A DNA stretch of 64,000 bases, from assembly GCF_051903065.1 (NCBI RefSeq), contig NZ_CP178438.1, one strand, 5' to 3'. Position 1 is the first letter of the stretch, and each line of letters starts with the position of its first letter. The stretch is from Escherichia coli (GTDB lineage: Bacteria > Pseudomonadota > Gammaproteobacteria > Enterobacterales > Enterobacteriaceae). The translations under genes and the position numbers were made by a program. The notes beneath the pieces are model-generated. The model made no database searches. It had not been told where the DNA came from and was given only the letters and a program-made list of their open reading frames with translations. Of the stretch, positions 2,629-57,624 are shown piece by piece.

Positions 2629-8180
<5,552 letters not shown>

Positions 8181-26645: not shown

Positions 26646-27593
26646 TCAGGACAGGGTGGCGGGGATGATGATTTGTTGCGGTTCGCTGCGCCCGGTTACC
26701 TGTGCGATCAACTGGCAGGCCGCCTGGCGTCCAGCTTCGGCGTAACCGGGATCTACGGTGACGATCTCCGGATGGAGGAATTTCATTAACGGCGTATTAC
26801 CGACGCTCGCCAGTTGCAAGGTGTCGATGCGTTGCTCTTGCAGGTATTTACTTGCGCCAAGTGCCAGCGTGTCGGTTGCGCACAGTAAGGCGGTAGTTTC
26901 AGGCGTAATCACTTTTGCTACGTTCTCATAGCCTTGCTTCATAGCAAGGCCTGGCAGGGCGGCAACGGGATGCAGTTTATGCGCTTTGCAGAACGCCAGG
27001 TAGGCTTCGTGACGTCGCTTACCGGTTGTCACGTCACTGTGCGGCACGCCGAGATAACTGATATTACGATGCCCCTGGTCATACAGCCGTTGCATCAGGA
27101 TCTTGATTGCCCCTTCGTCGTCATAACAGACCGAAGCAAAGCCTTTTGCGTCACGCGCCAGCAGAACCAGCGATGACTGCCAGTGGGCTAACATTTCTTC
27201 TGTTATGCCAGTAAAACCGAACAGCACTACGCCGTCGATATTACGCCGTTTCAGCACCCCCAAATGTTCGGCAACTAATTGCGGGGAAAACTGACTTTCC
27301 ATCATGATTGGGTCGTAACCTTGTTCATAGAACGCTGGCAGCATGGTTTGAACGGCGAGATTTTCTGACAACGAATCCAGACGGGTAACAATGATGGCGA
27401 CCACTTTATCGCTTTGCCCACGCATAGCGCGCGCAGAACGGGAAGGGGAAAATCCATGCTGATTCATCACTGCTTCAACACGCTCGCGCGTGCGCTGGCT
27501 CACGCCGCTTTCGTTATTCAGCACCCGGGAAACCGTAGATTTCCCCACGCCGCTTAAGCGCGCGATGTCTTTGATGGTCAGCCGATTTTGCAT
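26646..27593 (-). CDS. treR: trehalose operon repressor (LacI family)
   Basis: 315-aa ORF with N-terminal HTH (IKDIARLSGVGKSTVSRVLN). Confidence 0.95.
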   Translation of the reverse strand: MQNRLTIKDIARLSGVGKSTVSRVLNNESGVSQRTRERVEAVMNQHGFSPSRSARAMRGQSDKVVAIIVTRLDSLSENLAVQTMLPAFYEQGYDPIMMESQFSPQLVAEHLGVLKRRNIDGVVLFGFTGITEEMLAHWQSSLVLLARDAKGFASVCYDDEGAIKILMQRLYDQGHRNISYLGVPHSDVTTGKRRHEAYLAFCKAHKLHPVAALPGLAMKQGYENVAKVITPETTALLCATDTLALGASKYLQEQRIDTLQLASVGNTPLMKFLHPEIVTVDPGYAEAGRQAACQLIAQVTGRSEPQQIIIPATLS

Positions 27594-27667
27594 CCTGTTG
27601 TCCTGTAACGTGTTGTTTAATTATTTGAGCCTAACTTTACCCGTGCATTCAGCAATGGGTAAAGTCT

Positions 27668-27684
27668 GGTTTATCGTTGGTTTA
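27668..27684 (+). promoter_or_regulatory. PhoP box direct repeat upstream of mgtA
   Basis: GGTTTA-tcgtt-GGTTTA direct repeat matches the PhoP box consensus. Confidence 0.6.
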
Positions 27685-27777
27685 GTTGCCAGCAGGTATT
27701 ATATCGCCATAGATGCTACGAATATTATTGGATTCTCCTTATTATTTGCGGCGCTTTTTTCACTTACCGGAGGTTAT

Positions 27778-27831
27778 ATGGAACCTGATCCCACGCCTCT
27801 CCCTCGACGGAGATTAAAACTTTTCCGGTAA
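27778..27831 (+). CDS. mgtL: proline-rich leader peptide MgtL of the mgtA Mg2+-sensing leader
   Basis: 17-codon [20 protein letters not shown] in the mgtA 5' leader. Confidence 0.8.
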
Positions 27832-27971
27832 GCCCGTCTTTTCACGGCGTTACCGGATGCGTAAGGCCGTGACGTTTTAACGTCCCTGCTCAGCTTTATT
27901 ACCTTCAGGTAAGGCTTCGCCACGCCTGAAGACATTTCTGTACTGTTTCAGACAGTGCGGAGGGACTCCTT

Positions 27972-30668
27972 ATGTTTAAAGAAATTTTTACCCGGCTCAT
28001 TCGCCATTTACCTTCCCGTCTGGTTCATCGCGATCCATTGCCTGGCGCGCAGCAGACAGTGAATACGGCGGTCCCGCCGTCCTTAAGTGCGCATTGCCTG
28101 AAAATGGCGGTGATGCCCGAAGAAGAATTATGGAAAACGTTCGACACCCATCCGGAAGGGTTAAATCAGGCGGAAGTGGAATCTGCCCGCGAACAACATG
28201 GTGAAAATAAATTACCCGCACAACAACCGTCGCCGTGGTGGGTACATTTATGGGTCTGCTATCGCAACCCCTTTAATATTTTACTCACCATTCTCGGCGC
28301 TATTTCTTACGCCACGGAAGATTTATTTGCTGCGGGCGTTATCGCGCTAATGGTCGCTATTTCTACGTTGCTGAACTTTATTCAGGAAGCACGTTCCACT
28401 AAAGCGGCAGATGCCCTGAAAGCGATGGTCAGCAATACTGCGACGGTGCTGCGCGTAATTAACGACAAAGGCGAAAATGGCTGGCTGGAGATCCCGATCG
28501 ACCAGCTGGTGCCCGGCGATATTATAAAACTGGCGGCGGGAGATATGATCCCGGCAGATTTACGTATCTTGCAGGCGCGGGATCTGTTCGTCGCTCAGGC
28601 GTCGTTAACCGGTGAGTCTCTGCCCGTAGAAAAAGCCGCTACCACTCGCCAGCCGGAGCACAGCAATCCGCTGGAGTGCGACACGCTGTGTTTTATGGGC
28701 ACCACCGTGGTGAGCGGCACGGCACAAGCAATGGTGATTGCTACAGGTGCCAATACCTGGTTTGGTCAACTGGCGGGGCGTGTTAGTGAGCAGGAAAGCG
28801 AGCCGAATGCCTTTCAGCAAGGGATCAGCCGCGTCAGTATGCTGCTGATTCGCTTTATGCTGGTGATGGCACCGGTGGTGCTGTTAATCAATGGCTACAC
28901 CAAAGGCGACTGGTGGGAAGCGGCGCTGTTTGCGCTTTCGGTCGCGGTAGGCCTAACGCCGGAAATGTTGCCGATGATTGTTACCTCGACGCTGGCGCGC
29001 GGCGCAGTAAAGCTGTCGAAACAGAAAGTGATCGTCAAACATCTGGATGCTATTCAGAACTTTGGCGCAATGGATATTCTGTGCACTGATAAAACCGGCA
29101 CCCTGACGCAGGATAAAATTGTGCTGGAGAATCATACCGATATCTCCGGTAAAACCAGCGAACGCGTGCTGCATAGCGCGTGGTTGAACAGTCATTATCA
29201 GACCGGACTTAAAAACCTGCTCGATACAGCGGTGCTCGAAGGTACGGATGAAGAGTCAGCGCGCTCGCTGGCCAGTCGTTGGCAAAAAATCGATGAGATT
29301 CCGTTTGATTTCGAGCGTCGCCGGATGTCGGTGGTAGTGGCAGAAAATACCGAGCACCATCAGCTGGTTTGCAAAGGCGCATTGCAGGAAATCCTCAATG
29401 TGTGTTCGCAGGTGCGTCACAATGGCGAGATTGTGCCGCTCGATGACATCATGCTGCGTAAGATTAAGCGGGTTACTGATACGCTGAATCGTCAGGGGCT
29501 GCGCGTGGTTGCGGTGGCGACGAAATACCTGCCAGCGCGTGAAGGAGATTACCAGCGGGCGGATGAATCCGACCTGATCCTTGAAGGATATATTGCTTTT
29601 CTTGATCCGCCAAAAGAGACAACCGCTCCGGCACTGAAGGCATTAAAAGCGAGTGGAATTACCGTAAAAATCCTTACTGGCGACAGTGAGTTAGTTGCAG
29701 CGAAAGTGTGCCATGAAGTGGGGCTGGACGCGGGAGAGGTGGTCATTGGTAGTGATATTGAAACGCTATCTGACGACGAACTGGCAAATCTTGCACAGCG
29801 CACCACGCTGTTTGCCCGCCTGACGCCGATGCATAAAGAACGCATTGTGACCTTACTGAAGCGCGAAGGGCATGTGGTTGGCTTTATGGGCGATGGTATT
29901 AATGATGCGCCCGCCTTACGCGCGGCGGATATCGGCATTTCTGTGGACGGCGCGGTAGATATTGCCCGTGAAGCGGCTGATATCATCCTGCTGGAAAAAA
30001 GCCTGATGGTGCTGGAAGAGGGGGTTATTGAGGGACGTCGCACTTTCGCCAACATGCTGAAATACATCAAAATGACGGCGAGTTCTAACTTCGGTAATGT
30101 GTTCAGCGTGCTGGTGGCGAGTGCTTTCTTGCCCTTCCTGCCGATGTTGCCGTTACACTTGCTTATTCAGAACCTGCTGTACGATGTGTCACAGGTGGCG
30201 ATCCCGTTTGATAATGTCGACGACGAGCAAATTCAAAAGCCGCAGCGTTGGAATCCGGCGGATCTGGGGCGCTTTATGATCTTCTTCGGACCGATCAGCT
30301 CGATCTTCGATATTCTGACGTTTTGCCTGATGTGGTGGGTATTCCATGCCAACACGCCGGAAACGCAAACGCTGTTCCAGTCGGGATGGTTTGTGGTGGG
30401 CTTACTGTCGCAAACGCTGATTGTGCATATGATCCGCACCCGCCGTGTGCCGTTTATTCAGAGCTGTGCATCGTGGCCGTTAATGATCATGACCGTGATC
30501 GTGATGATTGTCGGTATCGCATTGCCGTTTTCACCGCTGGCCAGTTATCTGCAGCTGCAGGCGCTGCCGTTAAGCTATTTCCCGTGGCTGGTTGCGATTC
30601 TGGCAGGGTATATGACATTAACCCAGTTGGTGAAAGGGTTCTATAGCCGTCGTTACGGCTGGCAATAA
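27972..30668 (+). CDS. mgtA: Mg2+-importing P-type ATPase
   Basis: 898-aa ORF with DKTGTLT phosphorylation motif and GDGINDAPAL. Confidence 0.95.
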   Translation: MFKEIFTRLIRHLPSRLVHRDPLPGAQQTVNTAVPPSLSAHCLKMAVMPEEELWKTFDTHPEGLNQAEVESAREQHGENKLPAQQPSPWWVHLWVCYRNPFNILLTILGAISYATEDLFAAGVIALMVAISTLLNFIQEARSTKAADALKAMVSNTATVLRVINDKGENGWLEIPIDQLVPGDIIKLAAGDMIPADLRILQARDLFVAQASLTGESLPVEKAATTRQPEHSNPLECDTLCFMGTTVVSGTAQAMVIATGANTWFGQLAGRVSEQESEPNAFQQGISRVSMLLIRFMLVMAPVVLLINGYTKGDWWEAALFALSVAVGLTPEMLPMIVTSTLARGAVKLSKQKVIVKHLDAIQNFGAMDILCTDKTGTLTQDKIVLENHTDISGKTSERVLHSAWLNSHYQTGLKNLLDTAVLEGTDEESARSLASRWQKIDEIPFDFERRRMSVVVAENTEHHQLVCKGALQEILNVCSQVRHNGEIVPLDDIMLRKIKRVTDTLNRQGLRVVAVATKYLPAREGDYQRADESDLILEGYIAFLDPPKETTAPALKALKASGITVKILTGDSELVAAKVCHEVGLDAGEVVIGSDIETLSDDELANLAQRTTLFARLTPMHKERIVTLLKREGHVVGFMGDGINDAPALRAADIGISVDGAVDIAREAADIILLEKSLMVLEEGVIEGRRTFANMLKYIKMTASSNFGNVFSVLVASAFLPFLPMLPLHLLIQNLLYDVSQVAIPFDNVDDEQIQKPQRWNPADLGRFMIFFGPISSIFDILTFCLMWWVFHANTPETQTLFQSGWFVVGLLSQTLIVHMIRTRRVPFIQSCASWPLMIMTVIVMIVGIALPFSPLASYLQLQALPLSYFPWLVAILAGYMTLTQLVKGFYSRRYGWQ

Positions 30669-30727
30669 AGAATCAACTGGGCATGGTGACCCGGATTCAG
30701 ATTGCAGACAAAGTGAGTTTTGTTCAT

Positions 30728-30816
30728 GCCGGATGCGGCGTAAATGCCTTATCCGGCCAACAAATTCAATAAATTGCAGGAATCACGTAGGCCTGATAAG
30801 CGTAGCGCATCAGGCG
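30728..30816. repeat. REP/BIME palindromic elements
   Basis: gccggatgcggcgtaaatgccttatccggcc and gtaggcctgataagcgtagcgcatcaggc. Confidence 0.6.
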
Positions 30817-30873
30817 ATTTTGCGTTTGTCATCAGACTTAATCCGAGCATGATAGCCCGGATTTCCATCAAGA

Positions 30874-56512: not shown

Positions 56513-57624
56513 ATACCCCTCTGAAAATCAGTCATCAACTCACCAACACATCTTCTGAAATCTGTATTAAACTTATTGCTTAAATAGATGATATAACACA
56601 TCTTCCATTGCACGGAATCAGCGAAAACTGTCATTCTGGCAATCTTAACAAGATCATTTATCGGTTAATTTTATCAGTAAACAATGGAATATCACACTGA
56701 TAAAATGAACATTCAGGGTAAGATGATAAAATTCACATAAAAAATGCTGAAGATTATTTATTTCATGCAGATAAACGATAAAATACAAGAGAGTATATTT
56801 TTCAGTGTAAGAGTCAATCGTTCATCTCCACTGACGATCACGGTCAGCACATAAACAAAGTGAGTCCTCCTGCTTAGTCATTGCGTATCAGAAACTAAAA
56901 AACAAAAGATTCTGTAAACAACGTGACATTTTTTATGACATTTCCCGAATACAGATATATCAACAAACAGTAGTCAGCGTTGAATTAATAAGTTTTACAG
57001 GGCTATACGTATCTTATAAAACCACTCAACGACCATCATCACCTGACTATTTAGCGGGAGTATCATCTGTATAAATTCCTAAATAATAACACCTGTTATT
57101 AAAATAAGAATGCTGTCAGCAGTAAATTATTAACATAACACCTGTCCACTCTATCTGTTCTTCTAACTCAACCGGCATCGAAAATATTGCCTGATTAGTG
57201 CATCATAGCCTTCTTTTTTCTTTCCCGACCATCAAAACAAATACAACATTTACAACCACACAATAAAACAAAACTAAAACAAAACTAAAACATAAGATTA
57301 ACAACACCAATCAACAGGAAAACACTGAATATTGAGGTGCCCTGTAACCTGGAGAGCGCATACGGCGCATGTGATCAACACAGCCCATTCTTTTCTGTCA
57401 TCCCCCAAATGCAGAACAAACAAGCATAACCTAATGAATATAAAATAAAATATTATTTTTCACCATCATAAAAACATCAATGTATCTTTATATAAAAACA
57501 CTGATAACATGACATAAACATTTAAAAACATAAACAAATCACAACAAAAACATTTGATAATCACTTAGTGACAAAATAAAATTGAGACGATTTTGTTATA
57601 AGAGAGGCGCCATGGAGTGAGATA

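Follow-up and report, generated by a model that had tools for sequence, protein, structure and literature searches.

Transcription of mgtA, the gene for a Mg2+-importing P-type ATPase, is activated by PhoQ/PhoP at low external Mg2+ (PMC11552253, PMC7667037), and PhoP-dependent transcription of this gene has been published also for Salmonella (PMC3335776). The sequence recognized by PhoP, the PhoP box, is described by a consensus of the KGTTTA type in direct repeat (PMC3335776, PMC7667037). In the PhoP promoters classified as architecture I a single box in direct orientation is located 12 nt from the −10 hexamer and overlaps the position of the −35 element, and class II activation is predicted for them (PMC3335776). 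Zwir et al. tabulated Salmonella mgtA as a member of this class, with the box TGGTTTATCGTTGGTTTAA and a leader of 264 nt (PMC3335776). The architecture I promoters of phoP, yrbL, slyB, and pmrD, as well as orgB, share the direct-orientation box and the 12-nt spacing with mgtA, but only mgtA possesses a 264-nt regulatory leader, whereas the leaders of the other members of the set are 20–100 nt long (PMC3335776).

For the leader of E. coli mgtA a model has been published in which stem-loops A and B alternate with stem-loop C, depending on translation of the short open reading frame mgtL (PMC11552253). Leader conformation and read-through are reported to respond to Mg2+, as summarized in PMC11552253, and an account of mgtA control based on mgtL translation is given also in PMC12360218. 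At low Mg2+ the EPDP motif of the leader peptide causes ribosome drop-off, which is counteracted by the ABC-F factor EttA, and in E. coli mgtL toeprints were obtained at Pro3 (PMC11282234). According to PMC11552253, the field has yet to settle if the RNA itself detects Mg2+ or if detection proceeds via the translation of mgtL.

A comparable organization is known for the corA leader in E. coli and Salmonella, which contains the upstream ORF corL (PMC11552253). Like the mgtA leader, it forms a three-way junction holding the short ORF and adopts either an OFF fold with stems A and B or an ON fold with stem C, which exclude each other; translation of corL, like that of mgtL, is inversely related to how strongly the Mg2+ transporter encoded downstream is expressed (PMC11552253). 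Unlike mgtA, corA is transcribed from a constitutive promoter with no PhoP box, its leader ORF has a single conserved proline, and its Rho dependence is supported in E. coli (PMC11552253).

The mgtA control region in the window and in K-12

The DNA analyzed here, hereafter referred to as the window, is a 64,000-nt stretch of the E. coli contig NZ_CP178438.1 (assembly GCF_051903065.1). Its intergenic space at 27594–27971 lies between a minus-strand ORF of the LacI family and a plus-strand ORF for a P-type ATPase. The first of these, treR (26646–27593), encodes a 315-AA product, and the second, mgtA, which is the regulated gene, encodes an 898-AA Mg2+-importing ATPase with the Pfam domains E1-E2_ATPase, Cation_ATPase_N, and Cation_ATPase_C.

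The window could be aligned without gaps to positions 4465000–4471500 of K-12 MG1655 over 6.5 kb, with 69 substitutions, and treB, treR, mgtL, mgtA, ridA, pyrI, and pyrB are common to both sequences. The initial annotation of this DNA, which had recognized here the PhoP box and the proline-rich leader ORF of mgtA, had named the annotated K-12 leader as the reference against which to check it. This comparison was run and bore the assignment out: mgtL (b4702) mapped to 27778–27831 with identical DNA, and mgtA (b4242) to 27972–30668. Within the intergenic region (NC_000913.3, 4467247–4467624) the window and K-12 do not differ in PhoP box, −10 hexamer, mgtL, or any other part of the transcribed leader, and only two substitutions were found, at 27636 (T in the window, G in K-12) and 27689 (C in the window, T in K-12). 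Both are located upstream of the inferred transcription start, the latter in the variable spacer between the box and the −10 hexamer, and from that start to the mgtA ATG the identity with K-12 is 100%. The MgtA proteins differ in a single amino acid, residue 33, which is alanine in the window and valine in K-12.

The treR–mgtA intergenic region is present in 5423–5425 of the 5426 complete E. coli genomes, with at least 99% identity in 4185, and the allele of the window occurs at 100% identity in O157:H7 and many other E. coli strains. Under the intergenic match, RefSeq E. coli genomes carry the annotation "mgtL: mgtA regulatory leader peptide MgtL". We consider it very probable that the region represents the native mgtA promoter of E. 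coli and its mgtL leader in their already known reference form, with a two-tier control by Mg2+, at initiation and at elongation through the leader. There is no argument against the identification of the mgtA control region, and the doubts discussed below touch its mechanism only. The significance of the result is one of annotation only. The window carries an intact control region of the reference type; judged from this sequence, induction of MgtA at low Mg2+ is to be expected as in K-12.

Orthologous leaders were collected in one DNA-pattern scan of species-representative genomes, which gave 106 loci, and 96 Enterobacteriaceae leaders were kept after chance matches had been removed. These leaders span Escherichia, Salmonella, Citrobacter, Enterobacter, Klebsiella, Raoultella, Kluyvera, Kosakonia, Leclercia, Lelliottia, and other genera, and nearly all have an MgtA-like ORF approximately 140 nt downstream of the small ORF. 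Among the discarded loci, L021 (from Arthrobacter), L036, L037, L040, L067, L078, and L079 were chance matches in unrelated genomes, with long ORFs and no mgtA, and L084 had a 7-codon ORF and no mgtA. The conservation of mgtL codons 1–7 and of the ACCGG motif of stem A is imposed by the search pattern and was excluded as evidence. Pairing in stems A, B, and C was evaluated on 94 distinct leaders of the orthologues after alignment, and that in the distal helices on 71.

PhoP box and promoter

The PhoP box GGTTTATCGTTGGTTTA (GGTTTA-TCGTT-GGTTTA) occupies positions 27668–27684 of the plus strand, points towards mgtA, and stands in for a −35 element. The exact GGTTTA-N5-GGTTTA repeat, noticed upstream of mgtA in the initial annotation, was indeed found at these positions; it is the only match on both strands of the 64-kb window and was seen in none of 100 dinucleotide-preserving shuffles. 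The box agrees with the consensus (T/G)GTTTA-N5-(T/G)GTTTA with 0 mismatches. When one mismatch was allowed in KGTTTA-N5-KGTTTA, one match, again this site, was obtained in the window vs. 0.67 expected by chance, and GGTTTA-N5-GGTTTA with two mismatches allowed gave 9 matches vs. 3.75 expected. Because approximately 0.7 chance matches are expected at that stringency, the loose consensus is uninformative; it is the perfect match and the position of the box that go beyond chance, not the loose motif. In its 19-nt form, tGGTTTAtcgttGGTTTAg, the box agrees in every letter with the predicted mgtA site of Shigella flexneri 301 (PMC5775216). In that strain PhoP-P shifted the mgtA promoter fragment in EMSA, and the DNase I footprints obtained for mgtA were, according to the authors, in accordance with the PhoP-box consensus (PMC5775216).

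The −10 hexamer TATTAT is located at 27697–27702 of the plus strand, exactly 12 nt 3′ of the box (spacer 27685–27696). With its direct-orientation box, the 12-nt spacing, and no TTGACA-type promoter detected, the mgtA promoter of the window has the features of architecture I. A sigma-70 promoter scan of the 27400–28200 region found no promoter, which is the expected outcome because an activator-dependent PhoP promoter has the box in place of the −35 element. Since the scan demands a −35 match, the reading of this null result as promoter absence was rejected.

Transcription would start at 27708/27709, as inferred from spacing. A length of 264 nt, counted back from the mgtA ATG, leads to 27708, and 27708/27709 lie 6–7 nt after the −10 hexamer. 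The mgtA region of the window resembles in this the mgtA leader of Salmonella enterica (RF01056), where PhoP box and −10 hexamer are likewise 12 nt apart and the leader is 264 nt long (PMC3335776). The box, with up to two mismatches, is present in most of the 96 orthologues, and in 75 of them, across genera, a TATNAT-like hexamer (TATCAT in 30, TATTAT in 19, TATGAT in 16, and TATAAT in 10) comes exactly 12 nt later; this result is independent of the search pattern.

Leader RNA and the mgtL reading frame

Counted from the inferred start, the mgtA 5′ leader comprises 264 nt of the plus strand (27708–27971) and folds with −88 kcal/mol (z = −4.37). The Rfam family RF01056, Magnesium-II (Mg sensor), which covers the three-way junction and stem B, was matched at 27763–27878 on the same strand with 125.8 bits vs. 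a gathering score of 40 (E = 1.4e-26), over model positions 1–115 of 115. Between the end of the match and the mgtA ATG at 27972 there are 93 nt.

Stem-loop A (27763–27832), present in both the Rfam structure and the MFE fold, is closed by an outer helix of 27763–27773 with 27822–27832 and encloses two hairpins, at 27779–27793 and 27798–27813; it holds the Shine-Dalgarno sequence of mgtL and all of mgtL. Stem-loop B (27844–27870), formed by 27844–27853 with 27861–27870 and likewise common to the Rfam structure and the MFE fold, belongs to the high-Mg2+, mgtL-translated conformation. In the 94 orthologous leaders 95.3% of the cells of stems A and B are paired, vs. 36–49% in slid controls. The outer helix of stem A is 96% paired and mostly invariant, an invariance that is partly forced by the search pattern, and stem B is 97.7% paired, 7 of its 10 pairs showing compensatory changes.

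In the alternative stem-loop C (27824–27857), 27824–27831 pairs with 27850–27857 and 27834–27837 with 27844–27847. Folded alone, the 27815–27860 segment gave −18.6 kcal/mol (z = −4.18), and none of 200 shuffles was as stable. Among the 94 orthologues, 87.4% of the stem C cells are paired vs. 11–43% in slid controls; the core is almost invariant and the covariation weak. Since stem C is built from the 3′ arm of stem A together with the 5′ arm of stem B, its formation excludes both. Covariation cannot discriminate stem A from the stem C core, both being nearly invariant. The competing folds of the window match the published stem-loops A/B of high Mg2+ and stem-loop C of low Mg2+ (PMC11552253), and the Salmonella enterica mgtA leader has likewise a three-way junction with mgtL, stem B, and the alternative stem C. 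The interval of 27668–27831, to which the mgtA leader had been assigned at the outset, does hold its elements at the coordinates given, but it leaves out 27832–27971, where stem B, the 3′ arm of stem C, and the distal part of the leader are located. The functional unit is 27668–27971 and does not end at 27831.

The leader-peptide gene mgtL (27778–27831, plus strand) runs from the ATG at 27778 to the TAA at 27829–27831 and contains 17 sense codons, with four prolines (ATG GAA CCT GAT CCC ACG CCT CTC CCT CGA CGG AGA TTA AAA CTT TTC CGG TAA). It is preceded by a Shine-Dalgarno sequence, GGAGG (27769–27773), 4 nt 5′ of the ATG. The 17-codon proline-rich ORF reported upstream of mgtA in the initial annotation could be verified both by its identity with K-12 b4702 and by a match to the Pfam family PF17059 "MgtA leader peptide", obtained with 38.3 bits vs. 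a cut-off of 25 (E = 9.3e-10) over profile positions 1–17 of 17 (27778–27828). The distance from mgtL to mgtA is 140 nt, the same as in the two Salmonella subspecies recovered in the scan; the Salmonella peptide, MDPEPTPLPRW R(I/V)FLFR (L073, L035), differs from the 17-residue peptide of the window.

The embedding of mgtL in stem-loop A together with its own Shine-Dalgarno sequence, with the stop codon in the 3′ arm (CCGGTAA in the window), was seen in all 96 orthologues. The stop is always the TAA or TAG of a C(C/T)GGTA(A/G) motif in that arm. ATG and stop codon are likewise in frame in 96 of 96, at lengths of 15 (2 orthologues), 16 (23), 17 (70), or 18 (1) codons, so that the length differences are all multiples of three, and 76 distinct peptides are encoded; these results, too, are independent of the search pattern. 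Because the length changes by multiples of three and the C-terminal half varies freely, both ends of the ORF being anchored by structure, these sequence comparisons show that selection acts on mgtL translation itself and not only on the RNA structure.

The proposal of the initial annotation that the region is under PhoPQ control and under leader control by Mg2+ and proline is supported by the identity with K-12, the RF01056 and PF17059 matches, and the identity of the Shigella site. For the model given here, PhoP binding, Mg2+ dependence, ribosome destabilization, and termination were taken from the literature; the elements and their spacing, the reference identity, the conservation, the constraint on the mgtL frame, the exclusive helices, and the lack of an intrinsic terminator come from our analysis. 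Low periplasmic Mg2+ would be sensed by PhoQ, and phosphorylated PhoP would be placed on the direct repeat at 27668–27684. Acting as a class II activator, PhoP would recruit RNA polymerase, with the repeat replacing the −35 element 12 nt upstream of TATTAT, and transcription would begin near 27708. While the leader is being transcribed, a ribosome would load on mgtL (27778–27831). At sufficient cytoplasmic Mg2+ (and proline) it would pass the destabilizing Glu-Pro-Asp-Pro and proline codons and reach the stop in the 3′ arm of stem A; with mgtL read through, the RNA would settle in stems A and B, and transcription would end before mgtA. At low Mg2+ the ribosome would stall or drop off early in mgtL, which would let 27824–27831 pair with 27850–27857 as stem C; the termination signal would then be masked and mgtA transcribed.

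Transcription termination, the distal leader, and alternative readings

A terminator scan found no intrinsic terminator in 27708–27971; its sole match, at 27488–27505, is inside treR. The C-minus-G profile has peaks at 27778–27817, inside mgtL, and at 27878–27907, with no clear rut site singled out, and pyrimidine-rich tracts are present on both sides of stem B. Rho-dependent termination of mgtA was demonstrated in Salmonella and is questioned for E. coli (PMC5499598, PMC12360218). The ChIP-based Rho termination score of E. coli mgtA is 1.0, which points to no Rho effect, and the authors suggest a different mechanism (PMC5499598). On the other hand, a 3′-end mapping study includes mgtA in its list of 5′ UTRs whose 3′ ends coincide with regulatory sites already known (PMC7815308).

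Downstream of the RF01056 model, the distal leader (27882–27966, plus strand) can form a long-range helix of GUCCCU (27882–27887) with AGGGAC (27961–27966), which encloses hairpins at 27903–27931 and 27938–27960 and overlaps the mgtA Shine-Dalgarno sequence GGAGGG, 8 nt before the ATG. The MFE of the 27880–27975 region is −37.6 kcal/mol (z = −4.83). In 71 distinct orthologues the three distal helices are 95%, 85%, and 93% paired, vs. 42–49% in slid controls, and 15 of their 27 pairs show compensatory changes. The long-range helix is the one 95% paired and shows a CG-to-UA switch in 10 orthologues; these are pair counts for a pairing named from the window's own fold and carry that bias. A blind RNAalifold run on the distal leader returned parts of the two hairpins only, with a weak −10.4 kcal/mol, and did not recover the long-range helix. 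In the folds of the window the distal helix is present in both leader conformations. An RNA Biology paper mentions "additional stem-loop structures" beyond the three-way junction, and our search found no literature on sequestration of the mgtA ribosome-binding site; the primary structure papers lay outside this search and may already draw the helix. That the GUCCCU/AGGGAC helix is a functional anti-Shine-Dalgarno element, adding a layer of translational control to E. coli mgtA, we regard as quite unlikely. If true, it could help to explain why Rho dependence was not seen in E. coli.

Two alternatives concern the mechanism, one its sensor and the other its output. The leader could be a true metal-binding riboswitch, in which Mg2+ binds the RNA and stabilizes stems A and B while mgtL is secondary or senses proline only; Rfam classes RF01056 as a riboswitch aptamer, and the match in the window is full length. 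A sensor made of RNA only, however, has no need for an mgtL frame that is kept in 96 of 96 orthologues through 3- and 6-nt indels and variable C-terminal residues, and recent work places Mg2+ sensing mainly in the elongation of mgtL translation (PMC11552253, PMC11282234, PMC12360218). We consider the riboswitch reading unlikely; direct RNA sensing and sensing through mgtL translation may also coexist. The output of the switch in E. coli could be something other than Rho-dependent termination, either a Rho-independent loss of transcript or a gating of mgtA translation by the distal helix (27882–27887 with 27961–27966). The termination score and the different mechanism suggested by the same authors (PMC5499598) speak for this, as do a review, which notes of the mechanism found in Salmonella that it "may not be conserved in E. 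coli" (PMC12360218), and the pairing and CG-to-UA switch of the helix over the Shine-Dalgarno sequence. Yet the leader has no intrinsic terminator, the R66S Rho mutant may, as the ChIP authors note, simply leave the mgtA terminator unaffected (PMC5499598), and a Rho-dependent terminator continues to be depicted in later papers on E. coli (PMC11282234; model of PMC11552253). As for gating, a helix found in both folds gives no sign of switching. An output that does not depend on Rho is in our judgment unlikely. Whether Rho acts on the E. coli leader, and what the distal helix does, are questions of the field and not a discovery made in the window.

Two further alternatives touch the identity of the elements themselves. 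The GGTTTA repeat might be a chance match, or it might serve the divergent treR instead of mgtA: on the minus strand the same 17-mer sits 75 nt upstream of the treR start, and the Shigella motif list carries it as a predicted treR site (PMC5775216). Chance is opposed by the shuffles, none of which produced an exact match, and a role at treR by the orientation of the box and its exact 12-nt spacing to the mgtA-side −10 hexamer, both conserved across genera, as well as by the absence of treR from the 11 targets verified in Shigella (PMC5775216). Such an origin or role of the repeat is very improbable, and we retain it as the PhoP box of mgtA. The mechanical ORF list also contained a 113-AA ORF (27490–27831, plus strand) with a GTG start, which is an in-frame upstream extension of mgtL and had been dismissed from the beginning as an artefact ending in mgtL. 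Were it a real protein-coding gene, "mgtL" would merely be its C-terminus, and the frame is in fact open over 342 nt from the GTG; 34 of the 96 orthologues likewise keep this frame free of stops over the 130 nt upstream of the mgtL ATG. In the other 62, however, the frame is closed by a stop within that distance, and Pfam matched residues 97–113 only, to the MgtL family, with nothing outside them. The first 104 nt of the ORF are antisense inside treR, and it extends through box and −10 hexamer beyond the inferred start, so its start codon cannot be in the mgtA transcript. The dismissal therefore stands: RefSeq does not annotate the ORF in K-12 or other genomes, its being a gene is extremely improbable, and it should not be called as one.

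Distal helix at the mgtA Shine-Dalgarno sequence

The mgtA Shine-Dalgarno sequence is covered by a conserved long-range GUCCCU/AGGGAC helix, in which 27882-27887 pairs with 27961-27966 and which encloses two hairpins (27903-27931 and 27938-27960). Across 71 orthologues the helix is 95% paired, and a CG-to-UA switch within it occurs in 10 of them. The helix lies outside the Rfam model of the leader, and we found no discussion of it in the accessible mgtA-leader literature.

Leader length and PhoP boxes among orthologues

Comparison of the leaders collected by our DNA-pattern scan of species-representative genomes (loci numbered with L) showed that the 5′ segment ahead of stem A differs in length by 10-100 nt among genera, while the spacing from the PhoP box to the -10 element and the junction are constant across them. 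The switch therefore probably does not require nucleotides 27708-27762, which make up the first ~55 nt of the leader in E. coli. Relative to the mgtL ATG, the PhoP box is located at -100 in L030 and L059, and at -74 to -84 in L003, L011, L026, L027, L048, L052, L083, L096, L100 and L103. Differences within this 10-100 nt range also affect the distal leader in a few species; the mgtL-mgtA spacing is approximately 240 nt in L011, L052 and L096.

A PhoP box with fewer than four mismatches was not found in the 130 nt examined upstream of four loci, L039 (Pluralibacter MAG), L077 (Klebsiella indica), L070 (Citrobacter amalonaticus S646) and L044 (Citrobacter sp.). The mgtL-mgtA leader is normal in all four. 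Either PhoP control has been lost or relocated at these loci, or the box is situated beyond the 130-nt stretch.

An enterobacterial-type mgtL-mgtA leader was also observed in L011, from a MAG named 'Proteobacteria bacterium', and in L075, on contig NODE_7 of a record entitled Chryseobacterium sp. 18061. The MgtL peptides of L075 and L102 are identical. As the leader of L075 is typically enterobacterial and the genome is labelled as Bacteroidota, contamination or mislabelling of this assembly is suggested.

The treR-mgtA intergenic region and other sites in the window

The treR-mgtA intergenic region differs from that of K-12 at only two positions, 27636 (T for G) and 27689 (C for T), and this allele is common to O157:H7 and many other strains. 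Read on the minus strand, the PhoP box (27668-27684) falls in the region upstream of treR, at 75 nt from the start of that gene (27593). A motif screen in Shigella gives it as a predicted treR site; the verified targets in the same study do not include treR (PMC5775216).

Elsewhere in the window, an A-rich run made up of short repeats (ATAAAACAAAACTAAAACAAAACTAAAACA) at 57262-57292 resembled the PhoP-box pattern twice on the minus strand, with 2 mismatches in each pseudo-match; this site was rejected as a PhoP box, the sequence being of low complexity. Between the mgtA stop and ridA (30669-30873) we observed REP/BIME-like palindromic units, such as GCCGGATGCGGCGTAAATGCCTTATCCGGCC and GTAGGCCTGATAAGCGTAGCGCATCAGGC, and seven substitutions relative to K-12 are clustered directly past the mgtA stop, at 30674-30705.
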